NCBI GenBank assembly: GCA_002245135.1
Contig: NGBS01000008.1
Span: forward strand, 124,001-188,000
Origin: Proteromonas lacertae
Lineage: Eukaryota
DNA length: 64,000 nt
Reading direction: 5' to 3'
In this document: positions 15,401 to 63,179 of the stretch, piece after piece
Layout: every line of letters begins with the position of its first letter
Position numbering within the stretch: the first letter of the stretch is position 1
The notes under the pieces: model-generated
Told to the model about the DNA's origin: nothing
What the model saw: the letters and a program-made list of their open reading frames with translations, nothing else
Databases searched by the model: none
Made by a program: the position numbers and the translations under genes

Positions 15401-18400
15401 ATTTGGTATATATTTCAATGAGTTTATACCTGTATAACAATCATTAAAATGTCTTTCAATTCTTGGAGCATTATTACCATTTGATAATATATCTAATAAA
15501 GCTGGATTTGATACAAAGTAGAATCTTGGGAATATTTCTTTCTTTGTTTCTAAATATTCATCTAATGATTTCTGACATTTTTCTAAGTCTTTATATATAC
15601 TACTTAAAGTATCAAATAATCCTTCTTTTACACAAATGTTAATAACCAATGGAATACTATAACTATCTTCTAATATTGTTCTATATAGAGAATCTAAAGA
15701 TTTAAATCGTTTAGTATCACTTGGTAATTGTGTTTGTATATCAACTGAATGCATATATATATTTTCTAAAGATAACCACTTTGATTGAACTAAACCCCAT
15801 ATTCTAAATACACTTTCTACATCAGACAATAACTTAATCCATTTCTCTATTCTATCTTTAAAGAATTCTATATATTTACCCATTGAATTTATATTCTGTA
15901 ATTGTAATTGATGATCTTCTAGTGTTTCAATCAATTGATTTGATATATTGATTAGTTTCATATTCAAGTCAGTGTTATCAACATATTCTACATTTGTATT
16001 ATTCCACATATCTTCAATAATAGTTAATTTCTTATCAATCTTTTGTTCTCTTATTGACAATTCTACAGTCTCTTGTACATCTTCAATATGTTCATGTAAA
16101 TTCAACTTCAATACATCATTAAGACTGAAATCTGGTCCTTTATTGATTGGTTTGTGTGTAATATTGGATAATATTTTCCAATGTCTATCTTTCATTGAAT
16201 CATTATGTAAATCGTTGATTAATGGTAATGATAATGACATATTCCTTATGAAATCGTATAAATACACATAAATTGGCCAAGGATGAATGAATTTCGGTAA
16301 AGATAGTAATTGTTTGTTGAGTATCTTAATATCATTCAATAATACATCTGTATTGATTGTATTCCAGAGTGTATTTTTCCAATCAATGAATAAATAGTTA
16401 ATCATTGAATATAAATCCCATATTAACTTCAAATATATCAAATCTTGCTTAGATTCATATAATTCTATATATCTTGAAGGTTCTAAATCTAATAGATTCT
16501 CTAAATGATTCAATCTTAATCCTTCTTCAGTCATTTTTTGTAATTTATCTGCATAATTATCTAAGATCTTATAAGCTTGATCAGATTCATATCCTTCATT
16601 AGTATATGGACAATTCTTTTGCATTTCTGATCTAAATGATACAACAGACTCTTTAAATGCAGATACTTCTTTACGTATATTACTTGCCATATTATTTTGT
16701 AAAGGTAAAATAATTTCTTTCTTTTTGTAGGCTTTATCTACTACTTTATTCCAAAACACTGGGATTTGTTCTAAATAATCACTTACTGGTAAATTATCAA
16801 TTAATATATCTTCACATGTGATATTATATTTATTCAATAATTGGAAAACATCTTTAATTGGAGCAAACATGGATGTAATAAATTCATCATATTGTTTAAT
16901 ATCTTTAATATATTGTATACACAATTTCAAATCATCATCATCTCCTAATTGAATATCTTTATCTAATCCTTGGTGTAATTCATTTATCCAATTAGCAATT
17001 GTTTCTAATTCAAATTGTATTTCATTTTCTAAATAATTAGTATAAACGTATAACCATTTGTTGATTAAACTAGAAATTGCTTGTTTTAATGGCTGACAGT
17101 TTATTCTTAAAAATCCTTTATCTTCTACATTGTTAATCTCTTCAACTTGTAATAATAAATTCTTATAAAATGTGATTTTTTCATCAAATAAATTCAACTT
17201 TATTCTATAACTTATAAATTTACTTAATTTCGCATATATTTCTGATGGCTCTTCTACAGCAACTGGAGCATTATCATAATTTGTATTTACTGAAGTATTT
17301 GGCCTACTTCCAGATTGTGATGATGATGATTGTTGTTGTTGTAATTGTGATTGTTGTTGTGGAGATGGTAATAACAATGAATTTGTATTCTTTTCAGAAT
17401 CTTTTAATAATTGTTGAATAAACTTCTGGAATGTTTCATCAATATTATTCACCCAAATGTAAGAGTATTTATTGAATTGCGATTTATAAGTATCACATCT
17501 CTTCACCATTTGATTGAAATTATTATTGATTATATTCAATAAAGTATGGATCTTATCATGAGATTCAATTTCTTTAATATAATTAGCATCTGAACTTGTA
17601 TCTAATCTTTTAATTAAACTACTAATATGTATAAATCCATCTACCCATTGTGTTACACTATCTCTTATTCCATCTTTATTATTAGTTTCAATAATAGAAG
17701 GTACAAATTGAACTTCCTTTTCATATAAATCCATATCTATTTCTACAATTGGTAAACTAGTTGTTTTTCCTTTTGTATTATTAACACATTCTATTTGTCC
17801 ATTCAACATGTTCAAAGATGTACCAACACTGGTTATTATACCTTCAACCACTATATTGGATAAATAATCAATATAATTCTTCCATTCTGATAAACCTTGA
17901 GATATTTTCAACTTTCTCCATACATCTTTTACTAGGTTTTGTATTTTTTTACCTCCTTCTTTTATTACTTCATATTTCTTTTCCAATTGGCCTTTATATA
18001 ATTTATTAACAGTTTCTAAAGCTAATGGTTTAACATCTCTTTCGATTAATGGTTCATTCCAACTATCTAATATGGATCTTATTGCATTGAAATTATTTTT
18101 GATAGTTTGATAAATAGCATCACAATCTTTCACTATATTCATTGATTCATTGATATAATTCTCAATTCCATGTGATTTCCATGTCATATTAATAGAACCT
18201 GGTAATAATATCTTTTCCATTTTATTCAAATATCCCTGAACTAATGGTCTTTCTATATCCAATAATCCACTTTGTATTGTATTGTATAAGTTCATTATTA
18301 GCTCTAAATTACCTGTATATCTTCTATAGACTTCATTTTTTGAATATAATGTATTAGCAGTCTCTGGAATTTGTAAGTTTAATAATTTAAAGTATTTTAC

Positions 18401-20540
18401 TTCACGTAATAATCTTACTAAAGCTGGATCAAAATTAACAGCAATTCTGTTGTTTTCTCTATCCCATAGTAACAATGGTAACTTCAACTTCTCTTCAGAA
18501 ATATCTTCAATTGTATTTTCCCACTGATGTATTAAATTATTCTCATATTCCTTAATATTAGCGATTAATAAAGTATAAGATTTCATTATTTCTTTAGATT
18601 CTTCTTTTTCTAATAATTCACTACTTAATTGCCTTATTTCTTCCATTGGTTTAACTATTCTATCATATAAACTACGACTCCATATCAATGCACCAGCTAC
18701 AGGTGGAAGATTATTACCAATTGGTGGATCATTCTTATTATCTATAAATATTTGATTAATTATTTTCATATCTTCACTAAAATTGGTTAATAAAATTGAT
18801 TGTTCAGTTTTCATTTCTTCGTTGATGATTGGACGGTTTAACAAGCCTTCAAATCCAAATAATAATTTGAATTTTCCACTGAGTGTATAAGAATCTTCAA
18901 AACCTTGTGATATAATAGAAGATAATCTTCTTTCTAATTCTTTAATTTTATTTCTAAATTCAAAATATAAATCATCAAATTGTAAAGCATCAATATCTAA
19001 TAAATCATATTTAACAGCTTTCAATTGATCTACAGCAGTATTAAAATCAGAATATATCTGTAAAATGGATGTCGTTAAAGTTTTTCCTTTTGTTCCACCT
19101 ATTTCTATTTTGGATAATCTGTTGAACTGTATCATTGTTTCCGTTAATGTTAAAATATCGTGTGTTCTTTCTAAAAATGTGTCTAATCGTACAAATAATG
19201 CTTTATTTTCCATTTTCCATGGATTATTTTCTGATTCGTGGATTGATTTTGATTTATATTCGAAATATATTGATTTGAAATTACCACAGATTGATAAGAT
19301 AGAAGTTATTGATTTTATGGCTTTTTGAGATTCATCATTTTCTATCATTTTGAATAGTTCATCTGTTGTTAAGAAACTACAACTTTGCTTTATTAATGTA
19401 TTACACAATTTTCGAATCATTGTGATTAATCTGATAGGTTTGTTATAATATTTTGATTTTCTCCAGATTATAAGTAGTACATGATAAATTGGACGGAATA
19501 ATGTATTGATTTCACTGTAATTTGAACATCCTTGAAATTGTTCAAGCCAAGGCTCGAGTGGTTTTAAGTATAATGTGTTGTTATTGGCTTCATCTCGTGA
19601 TTGGAATATCTCTTTACATAATTTACTGAATGGTGTACTGTAGGTACTTCGATTATTATCCAAATACTTCAAAATCTTTCTAATTCTATCACTTTGTAGT
19701 TGTTGGTATATATAATTCAAATTATCAGCTTTCTTTCTCCAAAATTCTATTTCACTTAAAGGTGTGCTAACATCATTACTACCATTATTATTGTTATTAC
19801 TACCTGAATCAAACTTGGTTTGATCTGGATCTAATTTTAATACATCTTTAATCTGTCTACTCCAAATAATAATCACACCTTCTAGAATATGCAATCGATC
19901 CTTTTGATACTCTTCATCTGACATTAGACTAGTTTCTGGATTATTACTGCTATTATTATTAGCTATATCATCAGGTGGAAGTGGTAAGCAAGTCCTACCG
20001 TTAATGGATCCTTGCATAATCTGTATATCACTTAGATAATTGTATATTATGTTGTTATATTCTTTTACTGTTAAATCATTATAATCTCCGTGGTTGTGTA
20101 CACAGGTAAGTAGAGGAATATACACATTTTCTATTGTTTGCCTTAATATAATTATTGGATCATCTGCCAATACACCTGAAGTGATTAAAGTCTTCATATT
20201 CTCTTCGGATATTGTGTCTTTTTCTTTCTTTAGAAAGTAAATTGATCTATATTGATAGTTTTTGGGTGGACCTTTTGTAATTTGCAAATTTCCATTAACA
20301 TCAGTGACTGATATCATTAAAAGCTATAAATAATGAATAGATGAAGAAATACATCTCTATTATCTATAAAATCATCCATTACTGTTTGAAATGCTTCAGA
20401 TGCAATAAATTTCTTATATCTTTCAACTCTTATATTTCTAAATAAGTTTTGAATCTAAGATTTATAATCTGATCGAGTTATACCTGTTCTCCAAACCAGG
20501 CCTCTTTAGGTCCTAGTTCTACATCTTTTTGACTTCGCAT
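6410..20540 (-). CDS. Axonemal outer-arm dynein heavy chain, beta-type (ODA4/DNAH9/11/17-like)
   Basis: 4635-aa ORF with intact P-loops GPAGTGKT, GPAGSGKS, GPAGTGKT and GVGGSGKQ, CFDEFNR, stalk/MTBD and a full C-terminal domain (RGPTYIF...KWILGGV). Two short 5' exons start from the ATG at 20540. The subtype is assigned from remembered similarity. Confidence 0.92.
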
Positions 20541-22936: not shown

Positions 22937-25900
22937 ATGAATAGTCTAACTAAGTATTTGTTAGCATTTTTGGGATGCTTGTTATGTGTGCTTGCAGTTT
23001 GTCCCAACAATTGTAGTAGTCATGGAAAGTGTGTTGATGGTAAGTGTGAGTGTTTTATTGATCCTGAGACTGGTGAAACTTACACTGGCAATGACTGTAG
23101 TGAACATAATTGTCCAAAGGGCAACCCTTTTTCAGCTGTAAGTTCTCCAACAGCTTCTGGTAGTGGTAGCAGTTATTCAAGTGGATCAAGACGTGAATTG
23201 AATGTAGTTGATGGCGTAAAAGAGAAAAGAAAGCTTGCAGAGCCAGCTGGAGTTGAGATTTCGTTAATTGAATCAGTAGATGGTAATACATTATGGAAAG
23301 TGAAAGGATTAGAGACATTTACTTCCGTAATGCCAAAATCAGGAGGAAAAATAACATGTGATTTTTATAAAGAAGGTGTAGATAAAGTAACAGAAAATGT
23401 TGATATTCGTGGATATACTGATGATTATGCCTATACATTATTCAAGAATCCTGTTACAAAGATAGGTGAAACTCCAAAGCAAGCAGGAAGAAGATTAGCA
23501 GATGATGAATATACTAAAGTAGTGTGTAATGAAATATTGTCTATGAGAGAAGATTTAGTTCATTATAATCTTAATGTTGAATTAACTGTTGCTGGTAGTG
23601 GTGGTGGTAATAGTGCTACTGTAGAAAGACAATTATTTAATAATAGTAGAAAATTGGAAGGTGAATTAACAATGACATGGAAGAATTATGGTCCAATATT
23701 ATATGATATGGGATTATTACCAACAAAAGAAATAATTACACCAAAACCAACACCAGAAAATCAAGGACAAGGAAATAAAGAAGATGAAACAAGAAGAAGA
23801 AGAGTAATGGAAGGTGAAAAAACAGTGTATAAGAATGATAAATTCAAATTTGGATGTTTTGATAAATCTGCTTCTAGTTTAGTAGATGCTGAGATTACAA
23901 TTGTTAATGATGTTACTGGTGTATATAATACTGAAGATAAAAATGTTGTATTTTCATTTACTGATAAAGGATTAGATGCTGGAAAATATTTATGTTATTG
24001 TTTAATGGATGGTGATGGAAATGTATTAGATATTACTGAAACTGATTTAAAGGATAATATAAGACCAAAAGAAAAAGGTAAAACAGATGTGTTTTTATTT
24101 GGTAAATATGCAACTTCTTCTTCAATTACTGATGAGTTGGAGAATAATCATTTATTGATAAAAACGAAAGGTATTACTAGTGGTGAAATTGATGGTGCAA
24201 GTGATTATGCTAAGAAAGAGTATTTTGCTAAAGATAGAGTAGTATATCTTACTCTATTAAATAGTGATTATATATTTGAAGAAAAGAGAGTTGTAATGGA
24301 AGATAATTATAAAATTCCAACAATAACTGGTACAGTATTTCCATATATAAGAACATATCCAATTGATCCTTCAAGTGAATTACCAACCCCAAAAGCTGTA
24401 TCAATACCTTCAACTCCTACATCTGCGCCTTACTTATACAAAATGTATTACTTTGCTGAGAGTGTAATATCTGGATTAGAAGAAGCTGGTGGAATAATAA
24501 AATGTTTAAAAAATGAAAAAGTTGAATTATTGGATGTGAAAGGATTAGTAAAAGATTATAATGTTATTGTTAGATATAGTTACATTGAATCTCAAGATGA
24601 AATAACTGATGCAAATATAATATTGTTAAACTGTTATGGAATAGAAACAAAAAGAAAAGATCTTTCATTAACAAATCCATCCACACTTAGTTTTACTCCT
24701 CCTCCTCCTAATAATAATAATAATAATAATAATCAAAATCGTAGATTTTTGACTGAAAATACTATTACCTGGAAAGGTTATGGTGAAATATTACCAGAGA
24801 TTAAAGTTGATGCAACTGATTCATCATTTGCTTGTTATTTACCATCAGATTTAACTCTACCAATACAAACTATATCAAGTACAATTACAAATGATAATAC
24901 TAATATAGTTTTTACAGTTACTACTACTCCTCTAACTGTATCTGGTGATTATATGTGTTATTTATTAGCTGATGTAAAAGGTAATAAAGTGGAGATTGAT
25001 AAATCAGATTTGTTTTCATTAATCAGAGTTGTGAAGAAAGAAGATCAAACAAATGAATATTATTTTGGTAAATATGAAGTTACTGATAAAGTAGAAATAA
25101 AAAAGGCAGATGATGGATCAGAAGTTATACCATTAGATGGTACAAAGAATAAAATAGAAAAAACTCAGATAGTTTTAACAACTATTCAAGAAGATGTTAA
25201 AGATAAAGTATTAAATAAAATAAAAGTAGGTAATAAATTTCAATTAAAATTACATAAAATCAATGCATTTCATATAGTTAAGATACACGAAATTACTATA
25301 ACCAAAGTTGAAACAGAAACTCAACCAGAAAGGTTATTAGCAGAAACTACAACAATTACATATGATAATCCAATTCCTGAAGGATATACATCTGATAATG
25401 TTCTTTATGATTCTGTACCAATTGTAAAGAAGAATATTGTAGTTAATCCAGTTAATCCTGGTGATGATAAGAGTTATTTATATCAATTGACTGATTTTAA
25501 TAGTGAATTAGTAAAAGATTTAAGTATATTAGGAGGAAAATTACAATGTAAATTGGTTAATACTAATGTTGAAAATAGTAAACCAATTAAAAATCCGATA
25601 AGTAGTATAGTTGATGTAAAAGGAGTAATTCATGAAACAAATAGTGGTTATTATCAATTCAATTATAAAATTGAAGATACACCTAATTCTTTACCAACTG
25701 ATAAAGGTGATCATTATTATGTTGATGATATTGTATGTAATAATATATTATCTACAAGAACTGATTTAACATATTGGAATCCAATTAAAATTGATGATAA
25801 ATTTGATAAAGTAATAACATGGATAGGATATGGAACAATTGCGACAAGTATAAAATATACGTTTACAGAAAACAAAGCTAAAATGGCTTGTTATAATCCA

Positions 25901-27049
25901 AATGATGTAAAGAATAAATTAATCACCACATATGATATTGATGCAAATATTAAAGATAAAGATTTAGAATTTACATTTGGCAAAGAAAATCCATCTGTAG
26001 GTAATATTTGTTATTTATTAGCTGATGAAAAAGGAGGTAAATTGGATATAGAAAATAGTGAATTATCTTCATCAATAAGTAAAGACAGTAAAGGTAATTA
26101 TTATTTTGGTGAATATGTTGATGAAAATAATAAAAAAGATGAAAGTAATGTAGTAGAAAAAGGAGGAATGACATCTGTAATTAATGCAGATGGAAGTGTT
26201 AAAAGTAAGATTAATATAGATTATATTATATTAAAACCTGAAGATAATGCTAATAATACTAAACTTGATTTAAGTCAAGCAAATAATGTTGAAAATCCTC
26301 AAATATTATTACCTCCTTCAATGATTGATATAAGTATTCAAAAAGTAATAACAAGTGGAACAATAATAAAAGTAACAATTTATTATAATGATGGTACTAA
26401 AGAAAAAAAGGATATTCAAATATTAAAAGTAGGAAAAGGTGAAAATAATAAATTTAGTTTAGAATTATCTGATGCTATACCATTAGAAATAGATTCCGGT
26501 GGAAGATTAAGATCATTAGTTCCAGTTGCAGATGTTTTATCAGTTGAAATAAAATGGTTAAGTGAAGGATCAACTCATGCTCCAATAGAATGTAGTGGTC
26601 AAGGAAGTTGTGATAGAACAAGTGGTGTATGTAAATGTTTTGATGGATTTAGTGGAAGTGCTTGTCAAAGATTAGATTGTCCAAATAACTGTAATGGAAA
26701 TGGTCGATGTGTTGCTTTGAGTGAATTATTATCAAATGAAGAATTGAGTAATGCATATGATGGATTTGGAAATAAACATGAAACTACATTAAGTCCTTCA
26801 GGTAGTGTTATATTTGATGATCAAATATTTGGTTGTTTATGTGATAAAAGACATCGTGGATATGATTGTAGTTTGATTGAATGTCCATCTGGTTTAGATC
26901 CAGAAGAAGCAACAAATGATGATTCAAAACAAGGAAGTGAATATAGAGATTGTAGTGGAAGAGGTATTTGTAACTACAATACAGGTGTTTGTGAATGTTT
27001 TGATGGATTTAGTGGAGAAGGATGTCAAAACATGGTTCAAATGATGTAA
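22937..27049 (+). CDS. Secreted EGF-like protein, Sig1/Ocm mastigoneme-like, with a large repeated insert
   Basis: Signal peptide, then CPNNCSSHGKC and CPKG. The C-terminus has ECSGQGSCDRTSGVCKCFDGFSGSACQR, CPNNCNGNGRC, CPSGLDP and DCSGRGICNYNTGVCECF. Intronless. Confidence 0.7.
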   Translation: MNSLTKYLLAFLGCLLCVLAVCPNNCSSHGKCVDGKCECFIDPETGETYTGNDCSEHNCPKGNPFSAVSSPTASGSGSSYSSGSRRELNVVDGVKEKRKLAEPAGVEISLIESVDGNTLWKVKGLETFTSVMPKSGGKITCDFYKEGVDKVTENVDIRGYTDDYAYTLFKNPVTKIGETPKQAGRRLADDEYTKVVCNEILSMREDLVHYNLNVELTVAGSGGGNSATVERQLFNNSRKLEGELTMTWKNYGPILYDMGLLPTKEIITPKPTPENQGQGNKEDETRRRRVMEGEKTVYKNDKFKFGCFDKSASSLVDAEITIVNDVTGVYNTEDKNVVFSFTDKGLDAGKYLCYCLMDGDGNVLDITETDLKDNIRPKEKGKTDVFLFGKYATSSSITDELENNHLLIKTKGITSGEIDGASDYAKKEYFAKDRVVYLTLLNSDYIFEEKRVVMEDNYKIPTITGTVFPYIRTYPIDPSSELPTPKAVSIPSTPTSAPYLYKMYYFAESVISGLEEAGGIIKCLKNEKVELLDVKGLVKDYNVIVRYSYIESQDEITDANIILLNCYGIETKRKDLSLTNPSTLSFTPPPPNNNNNNNNQNRRFLTENTITWKGYGEILPEIKVDATDSSFACYLPSDLTLPIQTISSTITNDNTNIVFTVTTTPLTVSGDYMCYLLADVKGNKVEIDKSDLFSLIRVVKKEDQTNEYYFGKYEVTDKVEIKKADDGSEVIPLDGTKNKIEKTQIVLTTIQEDVKDKVLNKIKVGNKFQLKLHKINAFHIVKIHEITITKVETETQPERLLAETTTITYDNPIPEGYTSDNVLYDSVPIVKKNIVVNPVNPGDDKSYLYQLTDFNSELVKDLSILGGKLQCKLVNTNVENSKPIKNPISSIVDVKGVIHETNSGYYQFNYKIEDTPNSLPTDKGDHYYVDDIVCNNILSTRTDLTYWNPIKIDDKFDKVITWIGYGTIATSIKYTFTENKAKMACYNPNDVKNKLITTYDIDANIKDKDLEFTFGKENPSVGNICYLLADEKGGKLDIENSELSSSISKDSKGNYYFGEYVDENNKKDESNVVEKGGMTSVINADGSVKSKINIDYIILKPEDNANNTKLDLSQANNVENPQILLPPSMIDISIQKVITSGTIIKVTIYYNDGTKEKKDIQILKVGKGENNKFSLELSDAIPLEIDSGGRLRSLVPVADVLSVEIKWLSEGSTHAPIECSGQGSCDRTSGVCKCFDGFSGSACQRLDCPNNCNGNGRCVALSELLSNEELSNAYDGFGNKHETTLSPSGSVIFDDQIFGCLCDKRHRGYDCSLIECPSGLDPEEATNDDSKQGSEYRDCSGRGICNYNTGVCECFDGFSGEGCQNMVQMM

Positions 27050-39636: not shown

Positions 39637-40167
39637 ATGGGAAAAGGAGGTAAAGGAGGTAATAAAGGTGGAAAGAGTGATAAAGGTGGATCTAAAGAAC
39701 CTGCTGCTGCTACAGTACCAAAAGGTGGAGGTTCAAAAGTCAAAGTTCGTCATATTCGTATAAGTTGATATAATAAATGCATATAGTATGTGAAAAAGAA
39801 GGTAAAATTCAAGAAGCAATGAAGAAATTAAAAGAAGGAGTTCCTTTTGCAACTGTATTAGATAATTTATGAAGTGTAGGTAGCTCAGGAGTATAGTGAA
39901 GATAAGGCAAGACAAGGTGGAAGTTTAGGGTATATATATAGAATATATTATATTGATAGTTGGATTACTAGAGGTCAAATGGTGTATATTTTGTAATTTT
40001 GTGAATATATAGAGGTACTTTTCAAGATGCTGCGTTTGCACTTCCTAAAGGACAAATGACATATCTTTTTCTATTTACAATCATTATTTATTCTTAACAA
40101 ATATAACCAAACTCCAATAAAAACTCAATTTGGTTGGCATATCATTCTATGTGAAGATAGAGCTTAA
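39637..40167 (+). CDS. PIN4: Parvulin Par14/PIN4 peptidyl-prolyl isomerase
   Basis: G/K-rich N-terminus, VKVRHILCEK, YSEDKARQGGSLGW, FQDAAFALP and PIKTQFGWHII; five introns. Confidence 0.93.
40061..40106 (+). other. U12-type intron, AT-AA
   Basis: 5' ATATCTTTT and branch TTCTTAAC. The conserved parvulin frame requires the exon to resume at 40107, after AA. Confidence 0.7.
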
Positions 40168-40261
40168 TAATAAAGATAAATAATGTTGATTTTTTGTTTT
40201 TTATATGTTGTTGTGTTGATTCTTAGAGTTTTAATAAAAATGAAAAACACAATATCAATTT

Positions 40262-41754
40262 TTATTTATTATTCGTTAAGTATTTGGAAATATGTTGTTC
40301 AATTTCATATCTTGCCATTTTAATTATTTCAGTATCATTTTCATTAGGAGACCATATTGGCATATGATGAGAAGCACTCTATTAATAAATAAAAATGAAA
40401 TAATAATAATAATATACTGGTAAGAAGAAAACATCTTGATTATCTGATTCTATAATACTCATTGCACTCCAGGGATCTATACCTCCGTTTAGCCAGAATA
40501 TATTACTTCCTCTTTGATCAAATCCTCCAAAATGAGCATTTGTTTCATCCATCAACTCTTGAGTAACTTCAATTCCATAAGTATCTTTACATTGTTCAGC
40601 GAAGTATTCAACAGGTAAGTAATTTCCAAATATTTGATTTTTTGATCCTGTTGTTTGATACCATCCAAATTCACTACATGTCTGATACCACCAACTTCGA
40701 TCATCACTATATTTTATATCTCGACGAATTGATATGTATTTTTCATAGTTTACATTCATACACTTTTCACCATGGAAATGTTTATGAGCATTTAACATCA
40801 TTTTATATACTTCACTTTCATTTCCATGGAATATTTTACACAATGAATTGATTGTTGTTGGATTAGATGGTTTATCATATTGAATTACTTCCCAATAACT
40901 ATCATATACATTACTTATAAATAAATGTTCATCTTTTTTACTCACTATATTTTCACATAAATTAAAATCATTCTTTAATTCATTCTTTCCTTCTTCACTT
41001 TGAACCATTCTCTCTAATAATTCAAATCCATTCTTTATATTATCATAACATTCTTTTCCATTTTCAGCTGTTAATACGGCTTTACTAGCTACTTCATTAA
41101 ATTCAAACATATCCATCTTCGCATAAACTGGACCACTATCTGCAATTGCACCTGCAAAATAATGAGGATATTTCAATCGAGCCCAAGCACTTAATGTACC
41201 ACCATAACTACCTCCAAATGTTATCCATTTACTGTTTGGACTGTTATATTTCTTCGTTATAAATTGACGAAATGTGGATAAATCAGCTAAAGCTTGTCTT
41301 ACAGATAAATATCGTAAATGTTCTACTGATGTATCACTAAATGGCTGACTCTTACCATAGAATCTATGTTCAACTGCAATAGCTAATGCACCAAATTTTT
41401 TGGCATATACCATCATTGCTGAATCTACAACCCATATTGTTGAAAGTGGTGCTTCACAACCTATGTACAAGAAAATAGGATTGCCAATTTTCCAAAATGT
41501 ATCATTTATATAGTACAACTGTTGGTACGTTCGATTATCTTGTAAATCAAAGTGATCTAGTCTTTGAGTAAACCATTGATCAGGTAAATCTTTCAAACCA
41601 TTGGATTTCAATCTTCTTTCATATTCTACTACTTCTGGACTATTCATGATTGATCTTAATCGATGTGCATCAGCATAAATGACTATTCATATAAATATAG
41701 TATAATAATTGATATACAAAATGCAATAAATAGCAGGAATAAACGAATATTCAT
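40262..41754 (-). CDS. Serine peptidase family S28 (PRCP/TSSP-like), copy A
   Basis: Signal peptide, QRLDHF, EHRFYGKS, GGSYGG, QTCSEFGWYQ and NGGIDPW. Confidence 0.92.
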
Positions 41755-44700
41755 CGTTTAAAGAAATCGGGTGTGCGAAAATAATGAAACACAATTTTAT
41801 TTTTTCGATTTATTCTTTCACCAAACAAATAATATGATTAATAAATAATTATAAATTAAATAAATAATTATAAACTTCTATTAAATATCAAACGGGTCAT
41901 GTTTTACTATACATTTAGAAATTAGCTTATTGAATCTTTCTCTTCTCTTCAAAGATCCAGTTTTCAATAAATCAAAATACTGATGTACAGCACATGGAAT
42001 ACTTCCATCAATATTAACAATTAAATTTGCTTCATTCAATATATCTTCATCAACAAAGTTATTGCTTATATCCAATCCAAAATTCCTTACCATTCCTCTC
42101 TCATTATGACTAAAATACACAGAATAGTTAAAATGTGGATGTAAATAATAAAATACATTCAAAACTCCTTGTTCTGTAGTTGTTTTTAATACACTATAAG
42201 ATATGTTTGATAAATATTCAGTATAATCATTTAAAAACAAAGACAATTCATAAAAAGATCCAAATATATTCCCAGAGTTTATATTTGTATTATTATAAAT
42301 TGAATAAGGAGGGGATAAAGCAGAAATCCATTCTTTGGCATATCTATTTTGATTTATATTTAATCTACTACTCTCTTCAAATAAAAATACACAAGTTTCT
42401 GGATAATTCCAATGAAAAGGATTGATTTGGAAAAATACATCTCTTACATCACTAAAATGAATATATGTGAATAATTTACCATAGTGATTTAAGAATGTAT
42501 TTAGAATAAAGAATCTTATGGTATGTGAGAAATAACCATATTCTTCATTTAGATGAGGTATTGAATTGATTAAATCATCATAGGGAATATAATACTTATC
42601 TTCGTTTATTGGATAATAAGGATATGTTCTTGTTATTCGTAGAAAATAGAAATTGGATGGGAATTTGTATTGCATTTCATCATAATTATCATAAAATAAA
42701 ATAACACTTCCATTATAACCTGTATTAAGTAAGCTTAATAGATAAACTGTTATATATGAAGCATTGTAACATATTGAAAATCCAATTACTGCAGTTTGTG
42801 AATCATCTCTATTTGGGATTACTTTGTAGTTGTGAAATTCATCTTCATAATTGAATGAATACTTACCTAGATACTGATGTCTATTGTAATTTGGGAAATT
42901 TTTATAATATTCATGGTAATATCTAGCACTATATTGTATTGCCAAGAAAAGTGACCAAACTATGAACAATATTAAACAAAATATGAAATTTTCAGTTCTA
43001 AAACATTTCCTTAACATTCTAAAACGAATTTTATTATCTACAACAGCAACAGAAGCCATTTATTCGGAATATAATAATCTCAAACTGTCAAGCTTTTTTT
43101 GACTGTTTTTTTGAAATTCAGAGCGTTGTAGGGTTTATTAAATTGATCTTTTATGTTTATTAATATATCATGATAATTATTACTATGATGATGGGAATAA
43201 AAAGTGTTAATAGAGAGTGGTTGAGAAATGAATGTCAAAACACAATTACAGTCATTATAGATGAAGATATGAAGTATAAAAATACTTGAGAAACAATTAA
43301 TTGTTTTTTGTGGGGGTATATGTACAACGCAGAAGTATTTTAGTGATTAACCAAACTCCATTGTATTTATAAAGAAAATATTCCTATAAAGAAGTATATG
43401 TAGTAAAATGTTAATAATATCATAAATATTGTATTTGTTTTAATAGTTTATTATAGATTCAGTGAAGTGAATCAAGATTTATGAATGAATCAAGTTATGT
43501 TGATTTTTATCATGTTGTTTTAACAGGTTTTTCTTTTTTAGCTACTTTTTTTAGATGTTTCATAACATCCAGCCATATAATATCTATTCACACTTTTTCT
43601 TAATGAAAAATTCTTGCAACTTCTTCAATAACAAACTTCTTCAATGAACCATCAATAGAAGTTTGCCTTTTTCTTTTCATTAGCATTATGATTTATAACA
43701 CGAATAAATAAATTGTGTTAAAAATGGATTTTAAACAATTTTTAAAGCTTGTTAGTTTGTGTTTATTTTAGTCAAACTTTTGACTTAAATTAATTACCCC
43801 ATTTCTTTAAACGATGAATATTCGTTTATTCCTGCTATTTATTGCATTTTGTATATCAATTATTATACTATATTTATATGAATAGTCATTTATGCTGATG
43901 CACATCGATTAAGATCAATCATGAATAGTCCAGAAGTAGTAGAATATGAAAGAAGATTGAAATCCAATGGTTTGAAAGATTTACCTGATCAATGGTTTAC
44001 TCAAAGACTAGATCACTTTGATTTGCAAGATAATCGAACGTACCAACAGTTGTACTATATAAATGATACATTTTGGAAAATTGGCAATCCTATTTTCTTA
44101 TTTATTGGATGTGAAGGTCCTCAATCTTCTTATTGGGTGGTTGAATCAGCAATGATGGTATATGCTAAGAAATTCGGAGCTATGGGAATAACAATCGAGC
44201 ATAGATTTTATGGTAAGAGTCAACCATTTAGTGATACATCAGTAGAACATTTACGATATTTATCTGTAAGACAAGCTTTAGCTGATTTATCCACATTTCG
44301 TCAATTTATAACGAAGAAATATAACAGTCCAAACAGTAAATGGATAACATTTGGAGGTAGTTATGGTGGTACATTAAGTGCTTGGGCTCGATTGAAATAT
44401 CCTCATTATTTTGCAGGTGCAATTGCAGATAGTGGTCCAGTTTATGCGAAGATGGATATGTTTGAATTTAATGAAGTAGCTAGTAAAGCCGTATTAACAG
44501 CTGAAAATGGAAAAGAATGTTATGATAATATAAAGAATGGATTTGAATTATTAGAGAGAATGGTTCAAAGTGAAGAAGGAAAGAATGAATTAAAGAATGA
44601 TTTTAATTTATGTGAAAATATAGTGAGTAAAAAAGATGAACATTTATTTATAAGTAATGTATATGATAGTTATTGGGAAGTAATTCAATATGATAAACCA

Positions 44701-45136
44701 TCTAATCCAACAACAATCAATTCATTGTGTAAAATATTCCATGGAAATGAAAGTGAAGTATATAAAATGATGTTAAATGCTCATAAACATTTCCATGGTG
44801 AAAAGTGTATGAATGTAAACTATGAAAAATACATATCAATTCGTCGAGATATAAAATATAGTGATGATCGAAGTTGGTGGTATCAGACATGTAGTGAATT
44901 TGGATGGTATCAAACAACAGGATCAAAAAATCAAATATTTGGAAATTACTTACCTGTTGAATACTTCGCTGAACAATGTAAAGATACTTATGGAATTGAA
45001 GTTACTCAAGAGTTGATGGATGAAACAAATGCTCATTTTGGAGGATTTGATCAAAGAGGAAGTAATATATTCTGGCTAAACGGAGGTATAGATCCCTGGA
45101 GTGCAATGAGTATTATAGAATCAGATAATCAAGATT
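40430..45136. repeat. Near-identical inverted duplication of about 1.3 kb (arms about 40430-41767 and 43801-45136)
   Basis: The S28 copies A and B are reverse complements, including the first intron and the bases just upstream of the ATG. Confidence 0.9.
41881..43059 (-). CDS. Type II membrane GT-A-like glycosyltransferase
   Basis: N-terminal TM, SDVRDVFFQ.NPF (DxD), INSG, EQGVLN and VHQY; intronless. Confidence 0.7.
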   Translation of the reverse strand: MASVAVVDNKIRFRMLRKCFRTENFIFCLILFIVWSLFLAIQYSARYYHEYYKNFPNYNRHQYLGKYSFNYEDEFHNYKVIPNRDDSQTAVIGFSICYNASYITVYLLSLLNTGYNGSVILFYDNYDEMQYKFPSNFYFLRITRTYPYYPINEDKYYIPYDDLINSIPHLNEEYGYFSHTIRFFILNTFLNHYGKLFTYIHFSDVRDVFFQINPFHWNYPETCVFLFEESSRLNINQNRYAKEWISALSPPYSIYNNTNINSGNIFGSFYELSLFLNDYTEYLSNISYSVLKTTTEQGVLNVFYYLHPHFNYSVYFSHNERGMVRNFGLDISNNFVDEDILNEANLIVNIDGSIPCAVHQYFDLLKTGSLKRRERFNKLISKCIVKHDPFDI

Positions 45137-45293
45137 TAATTTATGTTCCTGTATATTTATTTATTATTTTAATTTATAGAGTGCTTCTCATTGTGCTCCA
45201 ATTTATAGTCCAAGTCGTGAAGATAGTGAAGCGATAAATATGGCAAGATATGAATCTGAGCAACATATTGCTAAATATATTTCATCTAATTAA
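43814..45293 (+). CDS. Serine peptidase S28, copy B
   Basis: Same motifs as copy A. Confidence 0.92.
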
Positions 45294-45380: not shown

Positions 45381-46961
45381 ATGAAGATCATTCTTTTTAT
45401 TGCACTTCTAGCCTGTGGTATAATTATATTTTTTATTGAATCTAATATAGCTGTTGCTTACAGACCAAAGCACCACATATCTGTCATGGAGAGCAAGTTT
45501 CATTCAAGATTATGAGAGAGATCTCAAGTTAGGAAAGGTCAAAGCAGTGCCAGAAGAATGGTTTACTCAAAGAATTGACCATTTTAACTTACAAGACAAT
45601 AGAACATACCAACAATTATATTTCGTAAATGATGAATATTGGAAAGTTGGTGGACCGATATTCTTATTCATTGGTGCAGAAGGTCCAGCAAGCTCAGGTT
45701 GGGTAATGAGTTCAGCCATGCATACCTATGCAAAGAAATTTGGAGCAATGTGTGTAATGTTAGAACACAGATTCTACGGTAAGAGTCAACCCTTCCCAGA
45801 ATCAACCACTGAGAACTTAAGATACTTATCGTCAAGACAGTCACTTGCAGATATGTCAACATTCAGAAACTACATCAATAAAAAGTACAATTCACCAAAC
45901 AGTAAATGGATTACCTTTGGTGGTAGTTATGGTGGTTCATTAAGTGGTTGGGCAAGATTAAAATATCCACATGCATTTGCTGGAGCTATTGCTGATAGTG
46001 GTCCAGTCTTTGCCAAATTAGACTTCTCTGAATATAATGAAGTAGCTACTCAAGCAATATTATCTTCAGAAAATGGCGAAGAATGTGCCAATTATGTTAA
46101 AAAAGGATATGAAGCAATAATAGCCTTAGTAAAAACACCAGAAGGTCAAGCCAAACTTAAATCAGATTTCAATTTCTGTGAAGATGTGAAGAGTGAAAAG
46201 GATCAACATAAATTTATTGAAGATATCACTGATATGTTTATGGGAGTTATTCAATACAGCAGTCCAAACCATCCAACCAGTATTGAAAGTAAAATATGTA
46301 ATTATTTCAATAGTAAATTCACTTCAGATCCATATATGATGTATATATATATATATATATAATTAAGATATAATTATTTTTTTAGGATGTTAAATTTTTC
46401 AAAATCCAATACTGGTAGTGAATGTTTATCAATCAGTTATGATGCATTTATTAATGAAATGAGAAATACATCACCTTCTTCTAGTAGATCATGGGTATGG
46501 CAAACATGTAGTGAGTTTGGTTGGTATCAAGCCTCTACATCAAAGAATCAAGTATTTGGTGATTATTTACCTGTTGAATATTCAATACAGGAAGTATTTT
46601 TTATATTATTATTATTATTATTTTAGTGTGTGGATATATATGGTAAAGAAGCTACTCAAGAGTTGATGGATGAAACAAATGCTCATTATGGAGGGTTTGA
46701 TCAAAGGGGAAGTAATGTATTTTGGACTAATGGAGGTGTTGATCCTTGGCATGCTATGAGTATCATAGAATCTGATAATCAAGATGTTGTTTATATTCCT
46801 GTATATCTATATATCTATTATTGTTGTTATATTTAATAATTTAGAGTGCATCTCACTGTGCACCATTATACACTGAGAGTGAGTCAGATCCTGAAAGTAT
46901 TAAAATGGCACGTTATTTAACTGAACAACATATAGCTAAATACTTAGCTGGTAATAATTAA
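45381..46961 (+). CDS. Serine peptidase S28, copy C (more divergent)
   Basis: QRIDHF, EHRFYGKS, GGSYGG and NGGVDPW; four introns. Confidence 0.92.
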
Positions 46962-54197: not shown

Positions 54198-55211
54198 TTA
54201 TGTCAATTCGTATTTTGTTATATAAATACACAATAAACATGAAAATAAATTAAATAGAAAATTAACTAACAAAATTATATACTAGACGCATGACCACTCA
54301 ATTCCGCAATCAAATGATCAACTATTAAAATGTAAAATCATATTATATATACTCATTTGAATTGTTTCAACAGCTACATCTAAATCCTCTTTATACAATT
54401 TACTATCAGTAGTATTAAAAGTCTTCACTAATAAACTACAAATAGAAAATCGATAAACAAAAAGTGTATTTTCACCATCAGATATAACAAATTTTGAAGT
54501 AGATTCCATAAACTTTCCAACTATTCAAAAGATACAATAAAATACAATAAAAATACGTATTTCTTCCGCTGGGTCTATCATAGCATGATAATTCGCCATT
54601 ATTGATATTTCATCACCATATAAATGAAAATCGTGATAATCACCTAAGATTATTTTACTATTTTGTTCTAGAAAGGCAGCTTCAATTCCATGGATTTGCT
54701 GTAGGTTTTTTAGTACAGGAATTATTGAGTTTTTGATTATATCTATTATACAATTTTCAAATGAAGAAAAATTGAAAACTGAAAAGTTTTCGAGGTGAAG
54801 TTGAGAAGAGTATTGACGACTAAATGATGTTAGAGTCTCTGAAGCTAAAATTCTGCCAAAATATTGACAGTATATATTGTCAAAAAAGCATATATATTAT
54901 TCATTTCAAAACAAAAAAGATATATCAACAGAATCAAGCATAACTGCACAAGATACATTATTAAGATCATCAAAAACGATAGAAACTGATGCTATACTTA
55001 TTAAAAGTAATAAAATACATGAGTTAAGCTCGATATATGAAAAAGACATACCAAATTTGCTTTTAGCCGATTCTCTCATTGTAGCTATCAGAGAACCTAA
55101 CATCCTTGTCTAGAAAATATAAAGATAAATTTGTACGTGTCCTTTAGCGATATATTCTTTAGTGAATAACACTATCCCTCCAGATGAAATGATTAGAATT
55201 GCTCTTATCAT
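54198..55211 (-). CDS. Longin/roadblock-like domain protein (3' end uncertain)
   Basis: MIRAILIISSGGIVLFTKEY...RMLGSLI...FSYIEL...FGRILASE; four GT-AG introns and one AT-AC intron. Confidence 0.6.
54870..54923 (-). other. U12-type intron, AT-AC
   Basis: 5' ATATCTTTT, branch TTTTTGAC, 3' ATAC. It contains an in-frame TGA, and phase-0 removal opens a long exon. Confidence 0.85.
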
Positions 55212-55330
55212 ATAACATATATATATCCTTATTTTTGTGCTTAACCTGATTGTTTATCGATTTTTAAATTTTTAATTTTTTTGTTAATGATTTGACTATA
55301 TCAAGCTTTTTTAAATTTCAATTTAAAAAT

Positions 55331-56406
55331 ATGGATTACTATTTAAGTCCAAATGCTATTGATGAAGGTTTAGATGGTATTCGAAAGGAATATCAACGGG
55401 TGGTACAGTTATATTACTATATTGCGTAATAGGTTCAAGAAGCTAACTCTCTAAAACAAAAGTGTCAAAACTATGAAGGTCAAATCCGCGATTTAACAGA
55501 AAAATTAGATAAATCCAACAATGATAATAGGTATTTCTACTTATTTTGAATAATTCAAAAATAGAAAACTAAGTACTGAAAATGAAAGATTGAGAAAAGC
55601 GTTATCTGCATTAGACAAGTAATATTAAACACTTTATTATTCAATAGTATTCGTTCTTCATTAATTGTCTCTGATTCTCAATCCTCTACTCGTCCAGTAT
55701 TATCTCCATCTACCAATTATTCATCATTTTCAACAGTTCCATCATTTGGTCCAAGTAGTAATCAACACCATCAATCTTCATTTTCTTCTCCAAAGCCATA
55801 TTTTGGTTCTTCATCTTCAAATAATTCAAATAATAATAATAATAGCAATGGATATTCTTATAGTATGAATAATGATAATCCAGATGTATAAAATAAATAG
55901 TAATAATTTTTATAATAGAATATATTAAATGCAATTGATGAGAAATTAAAAGGTCCAAAAATATCAAGTCCAGGAAGATCTTATGCATATATGCCAACAG
56001 ATAATCCATCAAGTTCAAGTAGAGGATTATCACCACCAACAAATACAACAAATTCAAATAATACAACATCATCATCATCATTACCAAAACCTGATTTATT
56101 ATATGATTCTTCAAGTTTATATAGAAATCCAACTCATAATACTTATATACCAGTATCATCACAATTGGGTCAACCATCAATGGAAAGTTTCATGGAACAG
56201 ATCAGACCTAAATTAGCACCAATTCAATTTCAGAAAATACTATCGATTATTCAAGTATATATATATATATATATTATTGTGATTTTTTATTGAATTAGTC
56301 TTATCATAAACAAACTATAACCCGTAGAAGTGCTCAAAATCAAGCTCAGGATATATTGGGTAAGTTTGAACCAAGATATATGAGTGATTTTATGAATTTA
56401 TTATAG
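55331..56406 (+). CDS. Protein with an N-terminal coiled coil, S/P-rich middle and small helical C-terminal domain
   Basis: Exons join across GT-AG introns; the C-terminus reads FMEQIRPKLAPIQFQKILSII. Confidence 0.6.
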
Positions 56407-60287: not shown

Positions 60288-61609
60288 ATGGAGGTTGAAA
60301 CGTATATAATATTTTTATATTCTTATTTATTTTTGGAATATATATTCTATTTTCTATAGAATATCCTTTTTTTGTTATAGAAGTAAAAATCAATTAGTTT
60401 TCTTGACTGACTATAGTCACCATCACCAGAAATCAGAAAGTATATTGCATTTTATATAATAATTAGACTTGGCAAAGAAGTAGAAGAATCACTGTACAAA
60501 GTCTTCGATGCAGGTAAGAATATTAAATATCTAAAAATTTATTAGAAACTCAATTACGAGAGAAGGTAATATCAATTTTGAAAGCTTTGAAATTACCTTT
60601 TTCTCAAACTGTTCCAAACAACAACGATTTAATCTTGAAGAGAATTACAGCCGCAATGACTAACATAGTATATCAGTGTAGTTCCAAACAATCTAACGAA
60701 TTATTACTATTACGTTTTTATGGTAAAGGAACTGAAGCATTTTTCTCACGAAAGAACGAAATTGCTGTATTTCAACGATTAAGTGAAATTGGATTTGGTC
60801 CAAAATTAATTGCTAAATTTAACACCGGTAGATTTGAGACCTTTTTAGTTAATTACAAGCCATTAGTCGAAAGTAACGCTCATACTCCAGAAGTCGTTGA
60901 GAAAGTAGCTAAGAAGTTATATGAATTTCATCACATTGATGTACCTTCCATCTCTCATGAAAATGGTATAATTCACAAGCTTGATAAATGGTTTGAAGGT
61001 GCAAAGAAGGAAAACAAAGAAAGTGAATGTTTCTTGATGGATAATGTTTATAATGAATTACAAAATCTAAAAGAATTACTCAGTAAGATTGATAATTCGC
61101 CAATCACATTTTCTCACTGTGATCTACAATGTGGTAACATCATGTTACACAAATCAGGAGATATAATGTTTATTGACTATGAATATGCCTGTTATGCACC
61201 TCGTGGTTATGATTTTGCTAATTACTTTAGTGAGTAGTATAGACTTACACCTATTTTATTTTTATATAGTATGTATGATTATAATTCAGTAAATGCAGAT
61301 TCTTGTTATGTTGATCGATTTCCAACTGAAGAAATTCAAAGAATATTCTTTGAAGCTTATCTTTCTATGAATAAAGAGAAGAATGATGATACAGTTGAAT
61401 CATTAATGAAGGAAATGAAACCACATATTTGTACAGCTGCTATGGTTTGGATTTTATGGGGAATAGTTCAAAATGCTGTATCTACAGTTGATTTTAACTA
61501 TGAGAATTACACAGTAGAAAAAATCAACTTTTATTATGATAAGAAGAAAGAAATCTTTGGAGTTGAATCTCTTCCTTTATATGATCCGTCTAGAATACAT
61601 GGATTATAA
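60288..61609 (+). CDS. Choline/ethanolamine kinase, copy 1
   Basis: AMTN, LLRFYG, GPKL, Brenner motif HCDLQCGN and FIDYEYA..PRGYDFANYF. The 5' exons were reconstructed by hand. Confidence 0.92.
60361..60416 (+). other. U12-type intron, AT-AG, preceded by a 1-nt exon at 60360
   Basis: ATATCCTTT...TTTTCTTGAC...TAG, starting one base after the AG of the GT-AG intron 60302-60359. Confidence 0.78.
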
Positions 61610-61731
61610 TACGTTTGTTTTTTTGTTAGAAAGATCCAAATTTGTTTTTGTTTTGGTGTGTTTTTGGGTGTTTTTTTTTACTTAGCTTGATTATTCAAGC
61701 TTTTTACATTTTTTTTCTTTTTGTAAGATTT

Positions 61732-63031
61732 ATGGAAGTAGAGAAGTATACTTTATATTATTATTTATATTTTACTATAGAATATCTTTTTTTTTCATTG
61801 TAAAAGTTAAGTTAATCAGTTTTCTTAACCAATATTAGTCAACATCACAGGAAGTTAGAAAGTAAGTGTATAAAATATAATTATTAGACTTGGTAAAGAA
61901 GTAGAAGAATCACTTTACAAAGTATCTGATGCAGGTAAGAATTATTGAATATCTAAAAATCTCTTAGAAACTGAGTTGAGAGAGAAAGTTATATCCATTT
62001 TAAAAGTATTAAAATTGCCATTTTCTCAAACTGTTCCAAACAACAACGATTTAATCTTGAAGAGAATTACAGCAGCTATGACAAATATTATTTATCAATG
62101 TAGTTCTAAACAATCTAACGAATTATTACTATTACGTTTTTATGGTAAAGGAACTGAAACTTTCTTTTCTAGAAAAAACGAAATTGCTGTGTTTCAAAAA
62201 ATGAGTGAAATTGGATTTGGTCCAAAATTAATTGCTAAATTTAACACCGGTAGATTTGAGACCTTTTTAGTTAATTATAAACCTTTAACAAGAAGCAATG
62301 CATATACACCAGAAGTGATTCAAAAAGTAGCTAAGAAGTTATATGAATTTCATCACATTGATGTACCTTCCATCTCTCATGAAAATGGAATGATAACTAA
62401 ACTTGATAAATGGTTTGAAGGTGCTAAAAGAGAGAATAAAGAAAGTGAATGTTTCTTGATGGATAATGTTTATAACGAATTACAAAATCTAAAAGAATTA
62501 CTCAGTAAGATTGATAATTCGCCAATCACATTTTCTCACTGTGATTTATCTTGTGGTAATACTATGATGAGTAAAACAGGAGATATTGTACTTATAGACT
62601 ATGAATATGCCTGTTATGCACCAAGAGGATTTGACTTTGCTATTTATTTCGGTGAATAGTATAGATTTACACCTAATTTATTTATATATAGTATGTATGA
62701 TTATAACTCTGTTAATCCTGAAGTATGCCATGCTGACTGGTTTCCAACTGAAGAAATTCAAAGAATATTCTTTGAAGCTTATCTTTCTATGAATAAAGAG
62801 AAGAATGATGATACAGTTGAATCATTAATGAAGGAAATGAAACCACATATTTGTACAGCTGCTATGGTTTGGATTTTATGGGGAATAGTTCAAAATGCTG
62901 TATCTACAGTTGATTTTAACTATGAGAATTACACAGTAGAAAAAATCAACTTTTATTATGATAAGAAGAAAGAAATCTTTGGAGTTGAATCTCTTCCTTT
63001 ATATGATCCGTCTAGAATACATGGATTATGA
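61732..63031 (+). CDS. Choline/ethanolamine kinase, copy 2 (tandem paralog)
   Basis: HCDLSCGN and LIDYEYA; same exon layout as copy 1. Confidence 0.92.
61782..61838 (+). other. U12-type intron, AT-AG, preceded by a 1-nt exon at 61781
   Basis: ATATCTTTT...TTTTCTTAAC...TAG, starting one base after the AG of the GT-AG intron 61746-61780. Confidence 0.78.
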
Positions 63032-63179
63032 TACGTTTGTTTTGTGTTAATGACTCGAATTTATTAATTTATGTTTTGAGGGTGTAGTTGTGTTTTAATT
63101 TTAAATACAATAATGACTGTATAAAACACGAGCCAAGTTATTTCTCAGTTTATTTTTCATTCTATTCTTCGAAAATCAC

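Follow-up and report, generated by a model that had tools for sequence, protein, structure and literature searches.

Two tandem choline/ethanolamine kinase genes of Proteromonas lacertae are each predicted to carry an exon of a single nucleotide. The window analysed, a 64-kb stretch of DNA with a GC content of ~27%, contains both copies, and the observation itself (which signals are present, how they are spaced and how the frame adds up) is confirmed. From these data we conclude, with a probability of roughly 0.78, that each A is a constitutive one-base exon between a major (U2) and a minor (U12) intron.

An initial annotation of the same DNA had described this arrangement. Its exons, introns, single A's and TAG acceptors were all recovered in the sequence, coordinate by coordinate and piece by piece, in both copies; its branch motif, given as CCTTRAC, has to be corrected to TTCTTRAC. 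The resulting model consists of exon 1, a GTAT…TAG intron, one A and an ATATCYTT…TTCTTRAC…TAG intron ahead of the remaining exons, and gives 371-residue open frames in both copies. The features are as follows.

60288-60301, +: copy 1 exon 1, coding part from the ATG, 14 nt
60302-60359, +: copy 1 intron 1, major, GTAT…TAG, 58 nt, matching the local donor and acceptor consensus
60360, +: copy 1 predicted one-nucleotide exon A, third base of codon 5, on the top-ranked path
60361-60416, +: copy 1 intron 2 with U12-type signals, ATATCCTT…TAG, AT-AG ends, phase 0, 56 nt
60400-60407, +: copy 1 branch motif, last A at 60406; an inner GTAAAA lies at 60383
60417-60439, +: copy 1 exon 3, 23 nt, GC 39% versus 12-23% in introns 1 and 2
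60440-60466, +: copy 1 intron 3, major, 27 nt
60467-60513, 60546-61236 and 61270-61609, +: copy 1 exons 4-6, choline/ethanolamine kinase domain
60514-60545 and 61237-61269, +: copy 1 later major introns
61732-61745, +: copy 2 exon 1, with the sole ATG from the copy 1 stop to 61929
61746-61780, +: copy 2 intron 1, major, GTAT…TAG, 35 nt, a typical length
61781, +: copy 2 predicted one-nucleotide exon A, on the top-ranked path, with a smaller margin than in copy 1
61782-61838, +: copy 2 intron 2 with U12-type signals, ATATCTTT…TAG, AT-AG ends, 57 nt
61800 and 61806, +: copy 2 inner GT donors in intron 2, which would be in frame
61822-61829, +: copy 2 branch motif, last A at 61828
61839-61861, +: copy 2 exon 3, 23 nt
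61862-61887, +: copy 2 intron 3, major
61888-61934, 61968-62658 and 62692-63031, +: copy 2 exons 4-6, separated by major introns, PF01633

The kinase pair and its relatives

The large exon of each gene matches PF01633 in a profile search (copy 1, 182.6 bits, E 1.5e-53; copy 2, 175.5 bits, E 2.1e-51; gathering cut-off 29). Among ten matches looked up, a Blastocystis homologue (P0133) is the only one that aligns along the full length of the kinase, with 133 of 382 columns identical to copy 1. Nine close relatives (P0001, P0002 and P0005-P0011; ~84-87% identity) are unspliced read-throughs around exon 5 and uninformative on exons 1-3. No DNA of relatives turned up in metagenome, genome or viral contigs. 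With P0133 as query, no ST1, ST4 or ST7 orthologue of Blastocystis occurred among nine matches, so intron positions are not comparable with those of that genus.

The annotated start of P0006-P0011 is an ATG in exon 4, from which the frame reads through intron 4. This favours the view that the ATGs at 60288 and 61732 are not the initiators; alternatively, the A could be an assembly error, given that the assembly may contain one-base errors (the U12-type intron of a presumably parvulin-like gene, described below, is one base off at its AC). However, read-through of intron 4 meets stops in both kinases, whose exon 5 open frames start only at 60527 and 61949, and the next in-frame ATG (60656/62078) falls inside the region of the kinase profile. 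The A itself is present in both copies and restores the frame. A wrong start or a spurious A is thus very hard to credit.

For the leucyl-tRNA synthetase (LeuRS) gene next to the pair, the best named matches include oomycetes and Blastocystis, at 61-64% identity. An outer-arm dynein beta-type heavy chain is encoded in the window too, over a 13.9-kb intron-free stretch (6410-20323, - strand) of a genome that is otherwise intron-dense; in Blastocystis, nearly all flagellar genes are reported lost (PMC12129017). At the level of lineage, the LeuRS, kinase and dynein genes together point to a flagellated stramenopile related to Blastocystis, in line with Proteromonas. An Rfam search of the window gave no match.

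Local splicing rules

A self-trained finder called 114 major introns in the window. It favours short introns by design, and of its seven seed introns six are kinase introns 3-5 and the seventh was mis-indexed by one base. Leaving out 30 of the 114 introns (flanks <30 nt, or at the locus) gave 84, and leaving out four more kinase introns gave 80. In these 80 predicted introns, all outside the kinase pair and with flanks of at least 30 nt, the donor is GTAT in 70 and the acceptor TAG in 76. Their median length is 31.5 nt, and a single one is 58 nt or longer. As a partial outside check, all five introns of the LeuRS gene are GTAT…TAG, and its spliced 1071-aa frame aligns with homologues. Both kinases conform to this consensus in intron 1, the 58 nt of copy 1 being unusually long.

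Against this yardstick we weighed the reading that the major spliceosome acts alone, without a one-nucleotide exon, the U12 signals being chance or a decaying relic. It could take the form of one long GT-AG intron, either from a donor in codon 3 (60294-60416 / 61738-61838; 123/101 nt) or skipping to exon 4 (60302-60466 / 61746-61887; 165/142 nt), or that of intron 1, a 19-25-nt exon and then an inner GT donor. All these paths are in frame and stop-free. The long versions nonetheless need introns of >100 nt, when only 1 of the 80 predicted introns reaches 90 nt, and bypass a good TAG, as 1 of the 80 does; the codon-3 version moreover uses GTTG and GTAG donors, seen in 0/80. The short-exon version does better in copy 2, where the inner donors yield typical introns of 39 and 33 nt and trail the path with the one-nucleotide exon by just 1.9-10.3 nats; a U2-only gene finder chose this inner-donor path for copy 2, and conversion of minor to major introns via nearby cryptic donors is known, according to passages of PMC3584512. 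Yet it is not shared by the pair, the homologous choice being out of frame in copy 1, and the all-major rivals of copy 2 place a T9 run in a coding exon, when runs of at least eight T are absent from 27,177 coding nt. Altogether, we regard splicing by the major spliceosome alone as distinctly unlikely.

Minor-intron signals and odds against chance

Both second introns begin with a minor 5' splice site of the form RTATCCTT, ATATCCTT in copy 1 and, with one change, ATATCTTT in copy 2; the donor is also found at 40061 and 54923. Their branch sites, TTTTCTTGAC and TTTTCTTAAC respectively, are TTCCTTRAC-like and resemble those of Blastocystis ST1, and in each copy 10 nt separate the last A of the motif from the intron end.

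We counted a joint motif made of minor donor, branch site and AC or AG end; since this pattern was defined after the loci had been seen, the odds against chance are generous. The window contains four occurrences, where 100 local Markov resamples average 0.25, and the motif arises in 5 of 200,000 simulated 120-nt intron-like sequences, which argues against the major-only reading. The initial annotation had proposed a scan for AG, any base and a minor donor; run within the window, with YAG-N ahead of the joint motif, it returned two loci, both of them the kinases, against 0.01 expected in 100 resamples.

The other two joint motifs belong to other genes, at 40061 (+) and 54923 (-). The second marks a 54-nt phase-0 AT-AC intron (54870-54923, - strand) that ends 10 nt from its branch A, the same spacing as in both kinases, and restores the frame. 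The gene that holds it has no Pfam or Atlas match, so the minor-intron call rests on frame; by look we take the gene to be longin-like. An annotation based on open reading frames would miss this intron. The first lies in the following gene.

39637-40168, +: presumed parvulin-like PPIase gene; four major introns (25-30 nt) and a U12-type intron from 40061

The parvulin label stems from sequence motifs and a weak match (E 1.9). Ending its U12-type intron at the AC that follows the branch A by 10 nt would miss the frame by one base; the frame is kept by AA at 9 nt (40106) or AC at 15 nt (40112). Either the end is non-canonical or the assembly has a one-base error here. A branch-to-end spacing of 10 nt is consequently no proven rule. 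Both kinase minor introns also have an AC 14 or 15 nt from the branch A.

Elsewhere in the window, a perfect ATATCCTT is followed 8 nt on by TGCTTAAC (55223-55245, +), 5' of an ATG at 55331 and with no AC or AG at a usable distance. This donor/branch pair is probably due to chance.

AT-AG ends are disfavoured in animals, where the optimum spacing is 11-13 nt, as passages of PMC3584512 describe; a survey of five species holds 20 AT-AG minor introns, 11 of them human (Table 2 of PMC1557818). For Blastocystis, 346 minor introns and the full set of four minor snRNAs are reported (PMC5608401), and 49% of its minor introns are in phase 0 (PMC10639083). A subset of 60 of the 336 ATATCC-starting introns of ST1 in supplement 32 of PMC5608401 ends in AG (23), AC (33), AA (2) or AT (2). 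With both properties so frequent there, an AT-AG minor intron in phase 0 is ordinary for the lineage.

The spacing bears on a reading in which the one-nucleotide exon is real and its boundaries are shifted: intron 1 would start at the GT of codon 3 (60294/61738), and the minor intron would end at AC 60420 in copy 1 and AA 61842 in copy 2, each 14 nt past the branch A. This path is in frame and homologous in both copies, it would give copy 1 a canonical AT-AC intron with a spacing nearer the animal optimum, and the presumed parvulin-like intron may likewise use a spacing of 15 nt. Against it, GTTG and GTAG donors would have to be used 8 nt from a consensus GTAT; codons 3-4 differ between the copies only synonymously, as coding sequence would; and the path scores 16.7 nats behind in copy 1 and falls outside the top 10 in copy 2. 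We consider shifted boundaries a very slight possibility.

Ranking of in-frame splice paths

According to the initial annotation, only inclusion of the A puts the ATG in frame with the kinase. This stands for the single long intron considered there and for plain retention, but not strictly, for other stop-free in-frame paths exist, 29 in copy 1 and 38 in copy 2. Skipping the A or retaining either intron leads to an early stop in both copies, retention of intron 1 in copy 1 meeting a stop in frame.

The score of each in-frame path combined a codon model with two intron models, the major one trained and the minor one set by hand. The path with the one-nucleotide exon ranks first of 56 in copy 1 and first of 134 in copy 2; its strongest competitor lacking such an exon trails by 21.6 and 10.3 nats, respectively, in scores that charge nothing for a one-nucleotide exon and use U12 weights set by hand with the loci in view. 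The path also comes first under all four further parameter sets, which weakened the minor weights, lowered the priors, fattened the length tail or removed the codon model, with leads of 9.6-19.8 nats in copy 1 and 1.9-8.8 nats in copy 2. A one-nucleotide exon between a U2 and a U12 intron, as first proposed, is thus the best-scoring model of both copies in all five sets. A prior penalty of 2-10 nats on such an exon would reverse the order in copy 2, and in copy 1 only one of more than about 10-20 nats; with the penalty at zero, copy 2 is not decisive by itself and copy 1 carries the case.

The alignment of the predicted copy 1 N-terminus with the beginning of P0133 is free of gaps (P 0.032 by shuffling; that score is reached by 1 of 149 other kinases), and among 59 paths the peptide of the one-nucleotide path scores best against P0133. 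This likeness gives the path weak support; the N-terminus of copy 2 does not match P0133 (P 0.91). We also tried an exon of zero length, with the minor cut one base upstream, and rejected it: an in-frame AC for it is present only in copy 2.

Inner GT donors are present in both kinase minor introns, which raises the comparison with a U2/U12 twintron, whose introns are nested or overlap. The path through the one-nucleotide exon would then compete with a major-only path inside the minor intron; the exon would be alternative, and the isoform ratio would report minor-spliceosome activity, with an unproductive outcome in copy 1 and a productive one in copy 2. A GTAAAA in both minor introns could indeed serve as donor of a major intron, 34 or 39 nt long, that shares the TAG, an AG end that suits both spliceosomes. 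Splicing from this GTAAAA would break the frame in copy 1 and leave it open in copy 2; such twintrons are described in PMC8329584. Such GT sites are cheap in AT-rich sequence, however, GTAA accounts for just 4 of the 80 predicted donors, and the two GTAAAA (60383/61800) are offset in the alignment of the two minor introns. Competition of this kind is in our view highly improbable. Compared instead with the class of single-nucleotide exons, both copies have exactly one base between the 3' and the 5' splice site.

Comparison of the two copies

When the copies are aligned, intron 1 is identical in 31 of 58 columns, with 23 nt in gaps, and intron 2 in 41 of 58; the ordinary introns 3 and 4 are identical at 20 of 27 and 29 of 33. 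The divergence of intron interiors that had been reported is therefore clear only for intron 1. At 74-88% identity of their ordinary introns, the paralogs are recent and not independent witnesses. Their agreement is weak evidence, and the earlier appeal to conservation in both was overstated. The indels in the predicted introns 1 and 2 exclude a shared coding reading of their interiors. In exon 1, three of the four differences are synonymous third positions; third positions account for 9 of 14 differences in exons 1-4 and for 61 of 94 in exon 5.

The 3' parts of the two kinases are identical over four 60-base windows (61326-61565 versus 62748-62987), the remainder differing by ~13%, which suggests gene conversion or assembly collapse. 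At 62540-62660, several residues near the catalytic motifs set copy 2 apart from copy 1 and from every close relative, hinting at a possibly altered substrate preference. Within a few bases after both kinase stops lies a GTTTGTT (61609-61620, 63031-63045); a similar downstream element near transcript ends is described for Blastocystis in passages of PMC5608401 and PMC12129017.

Elsewhere in the window are three related genes (40382-41686, -; 43882-45237, +; 45451-46362, +) that we take to be peptidase-like, two of them near-identical and inverted about 41881-43059. An intron-free gene at 22937-27049 (+) encodes a 1370-aa protein whose cysteine-rich ends are presumably EGF/tenascin-like.

Proposed mechanism and origin

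In the preferred model, with its one-base exon, the major spliceosome would remove the GTAT…TAG intron 1 and the minor spliceosome the AT-AG intron 2. Such tiny introns would each be recognized by intron definition, so that the one-nucleotide exon would itself need no recognition. The abutting sites could not hold both spliceosomes at once, and the two would act in succession; successive removal of the flanking introns has already been proposed for APC11, in passages of PMC4674806.

It had been claimed that the two spliceosomes must act in order. We find no such constraint in the DNA: donors, acceptors and branch site are already complete there, and neither excision creates or destroys signals of the other intron. 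Stwintrons and ratchet points are defined by a first excision that generates a splice signal for the second intron. Neither excision builds a signal here, so the arrangement is neither of these and no order is forced. Minor introns are generally spliced more slowly, which makes removal of the major intron first the likelier order. U11 pairs only with intron bases, and excision of the major intron first would leave the A as the end of a normal 5' exon ahead of the minor donor. The reverse order would also yield a normal substrate, and the order is probably kinetic rather than forced.

Because skipping of the A or retention of an intron ends in early stops, the full-length kinase should depend on minor splicing. 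This dependence would be strict in copy 1, and copy 2 would possibly leak through an in-frame all-major bypass via the inner GTAAAA donor at 61800. The suggestion that kinase expression is gated by the minor spliceosome is borne out as far as this dependence is expected; as a special property it is not, for such gating applies to any minor-intron gene, according to passages of PMC3728624. It is generic and independent of the one-nucleotide exon, which would add only frame-shifting errors. A bolder proposal combines three elements: the first one-base exon to arise from a hand-off between two spliceosomes, a fixed major-then-minor order imposed by steric exclusion, and a sensor of the minor spliceosome, in which lagging U12 splicing would frameshift copy 1 and let copy 2 escape via its inner major donor, so that the balance between two kinases with differences around the active site would change. 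We consider this combination unlikely. As to origin, the exon likely reflects a lineage-specific gain of an intron one base from an existing one, in an unconserved N-terminal tail.

U2AF-U11 contact across the exon is the accepted mode of cooperation in animals. If confirmed, the kinase exon would set the shortest possible distance from a major 3' splice site to a minor 5' splice site and would show that contact to be dispensable where introns are tiny. The locus would also offer a natural substrate of 130 nt on which to ask which spliceosome goes first and whether U11 binds over a fresh junction. Gene finders and read aligners miss an AT-AG intron and a one-nucleotide exon, leading to wrong N-termini, and minor-intron counts in the lineage may be too low.

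Comparison with known systems

In the largely open-access literature on one-nucleotide exons and minor introns, no one-nucleotide exon beside a minor intron appeared among the matches listed. The accessible parts of two papers on Blastocystis U12-type introns (PMC5608401, PMC10639083) note no one-nucleotide exon; the tables in supplement 32 of PMC5608401 list introns only, and a correctly annotated one-nucleotide exon could not appear there. Strings of the form AG-N-ATATCY or AG-ATATCC occur at least 53 times in the part of these tables available. A look-alike among the matches listed, KNB46270_4 with TAG-A-ATATCCTT, was rejected by hand: the 38 bases before its donor are open coding sequence, and its length arithmetic misfits a one-nucleotide exon.

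The minor introns of Blastocystis ST1 are close counterparts of those predicted here, with an ATATCC donor, a TYCTTRAC-like branch site, frequent AT-AG ends and phase 0, and short length, as far as the material from PMC5608401 and PMC10639083 extends. The ST1 introns in that material are mostly 37-44 nt long and end, by eye, ~6-8 nt from the branch A, versus 56-57 nt and 10 nt in the kinases.

U2/U12 twintrons (prospero, dUrp) and the USSE resemble the kinase locus in having major and minor signals very close together, where they could compete or cooperate (passages of PMC3584512 and PMC8329584). The twintrons described there nest or overlap as alternatives, and the donors of the USSE stand in tandem and are not spliced; in contrast, the kinase introns lie in series, one base apart, and both are predicted to be removed.

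One-base exons validated at the RNA level are described in Arabidopsis APC11 (PMC4674806) and plant VPS55 (PMC8831610), and Fusarium CYP621A has one in the context AG-G-GT, within a conserved motif and with SRA support (PMC12940212). In the passages available from these papers, all three have AG and GT borders, the VPS55 donor being GTRAGT, and the term 'U12' does not occur in those from the VPS55 paper. APC11 and VPS55, as described there, share with the kinases a lone base close to the start of the coding sequence that annotation misses, with successive intron removal as the proposed route; the frame needs this base in the plant genes, and in the kinases it does so on the best-scoring of several in-frame paths. 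They differ from both in that the exon is predicted, its flanking introns are just 35-58 nt long, and the downstream one has U12 signals and AT-AG ends. The reasoning is that used for CYP621A, in so far as its available text goes: frame arithmetic and a compound intron too long for the organism. The kinase exon, unlike that of CYP621A, is predicted from sequence and lies in an unconserved tail, in the context AG-A-ATATC. One-base exons are thus known as a kind, and what is likely new here is a predicted one next to a minor intron.
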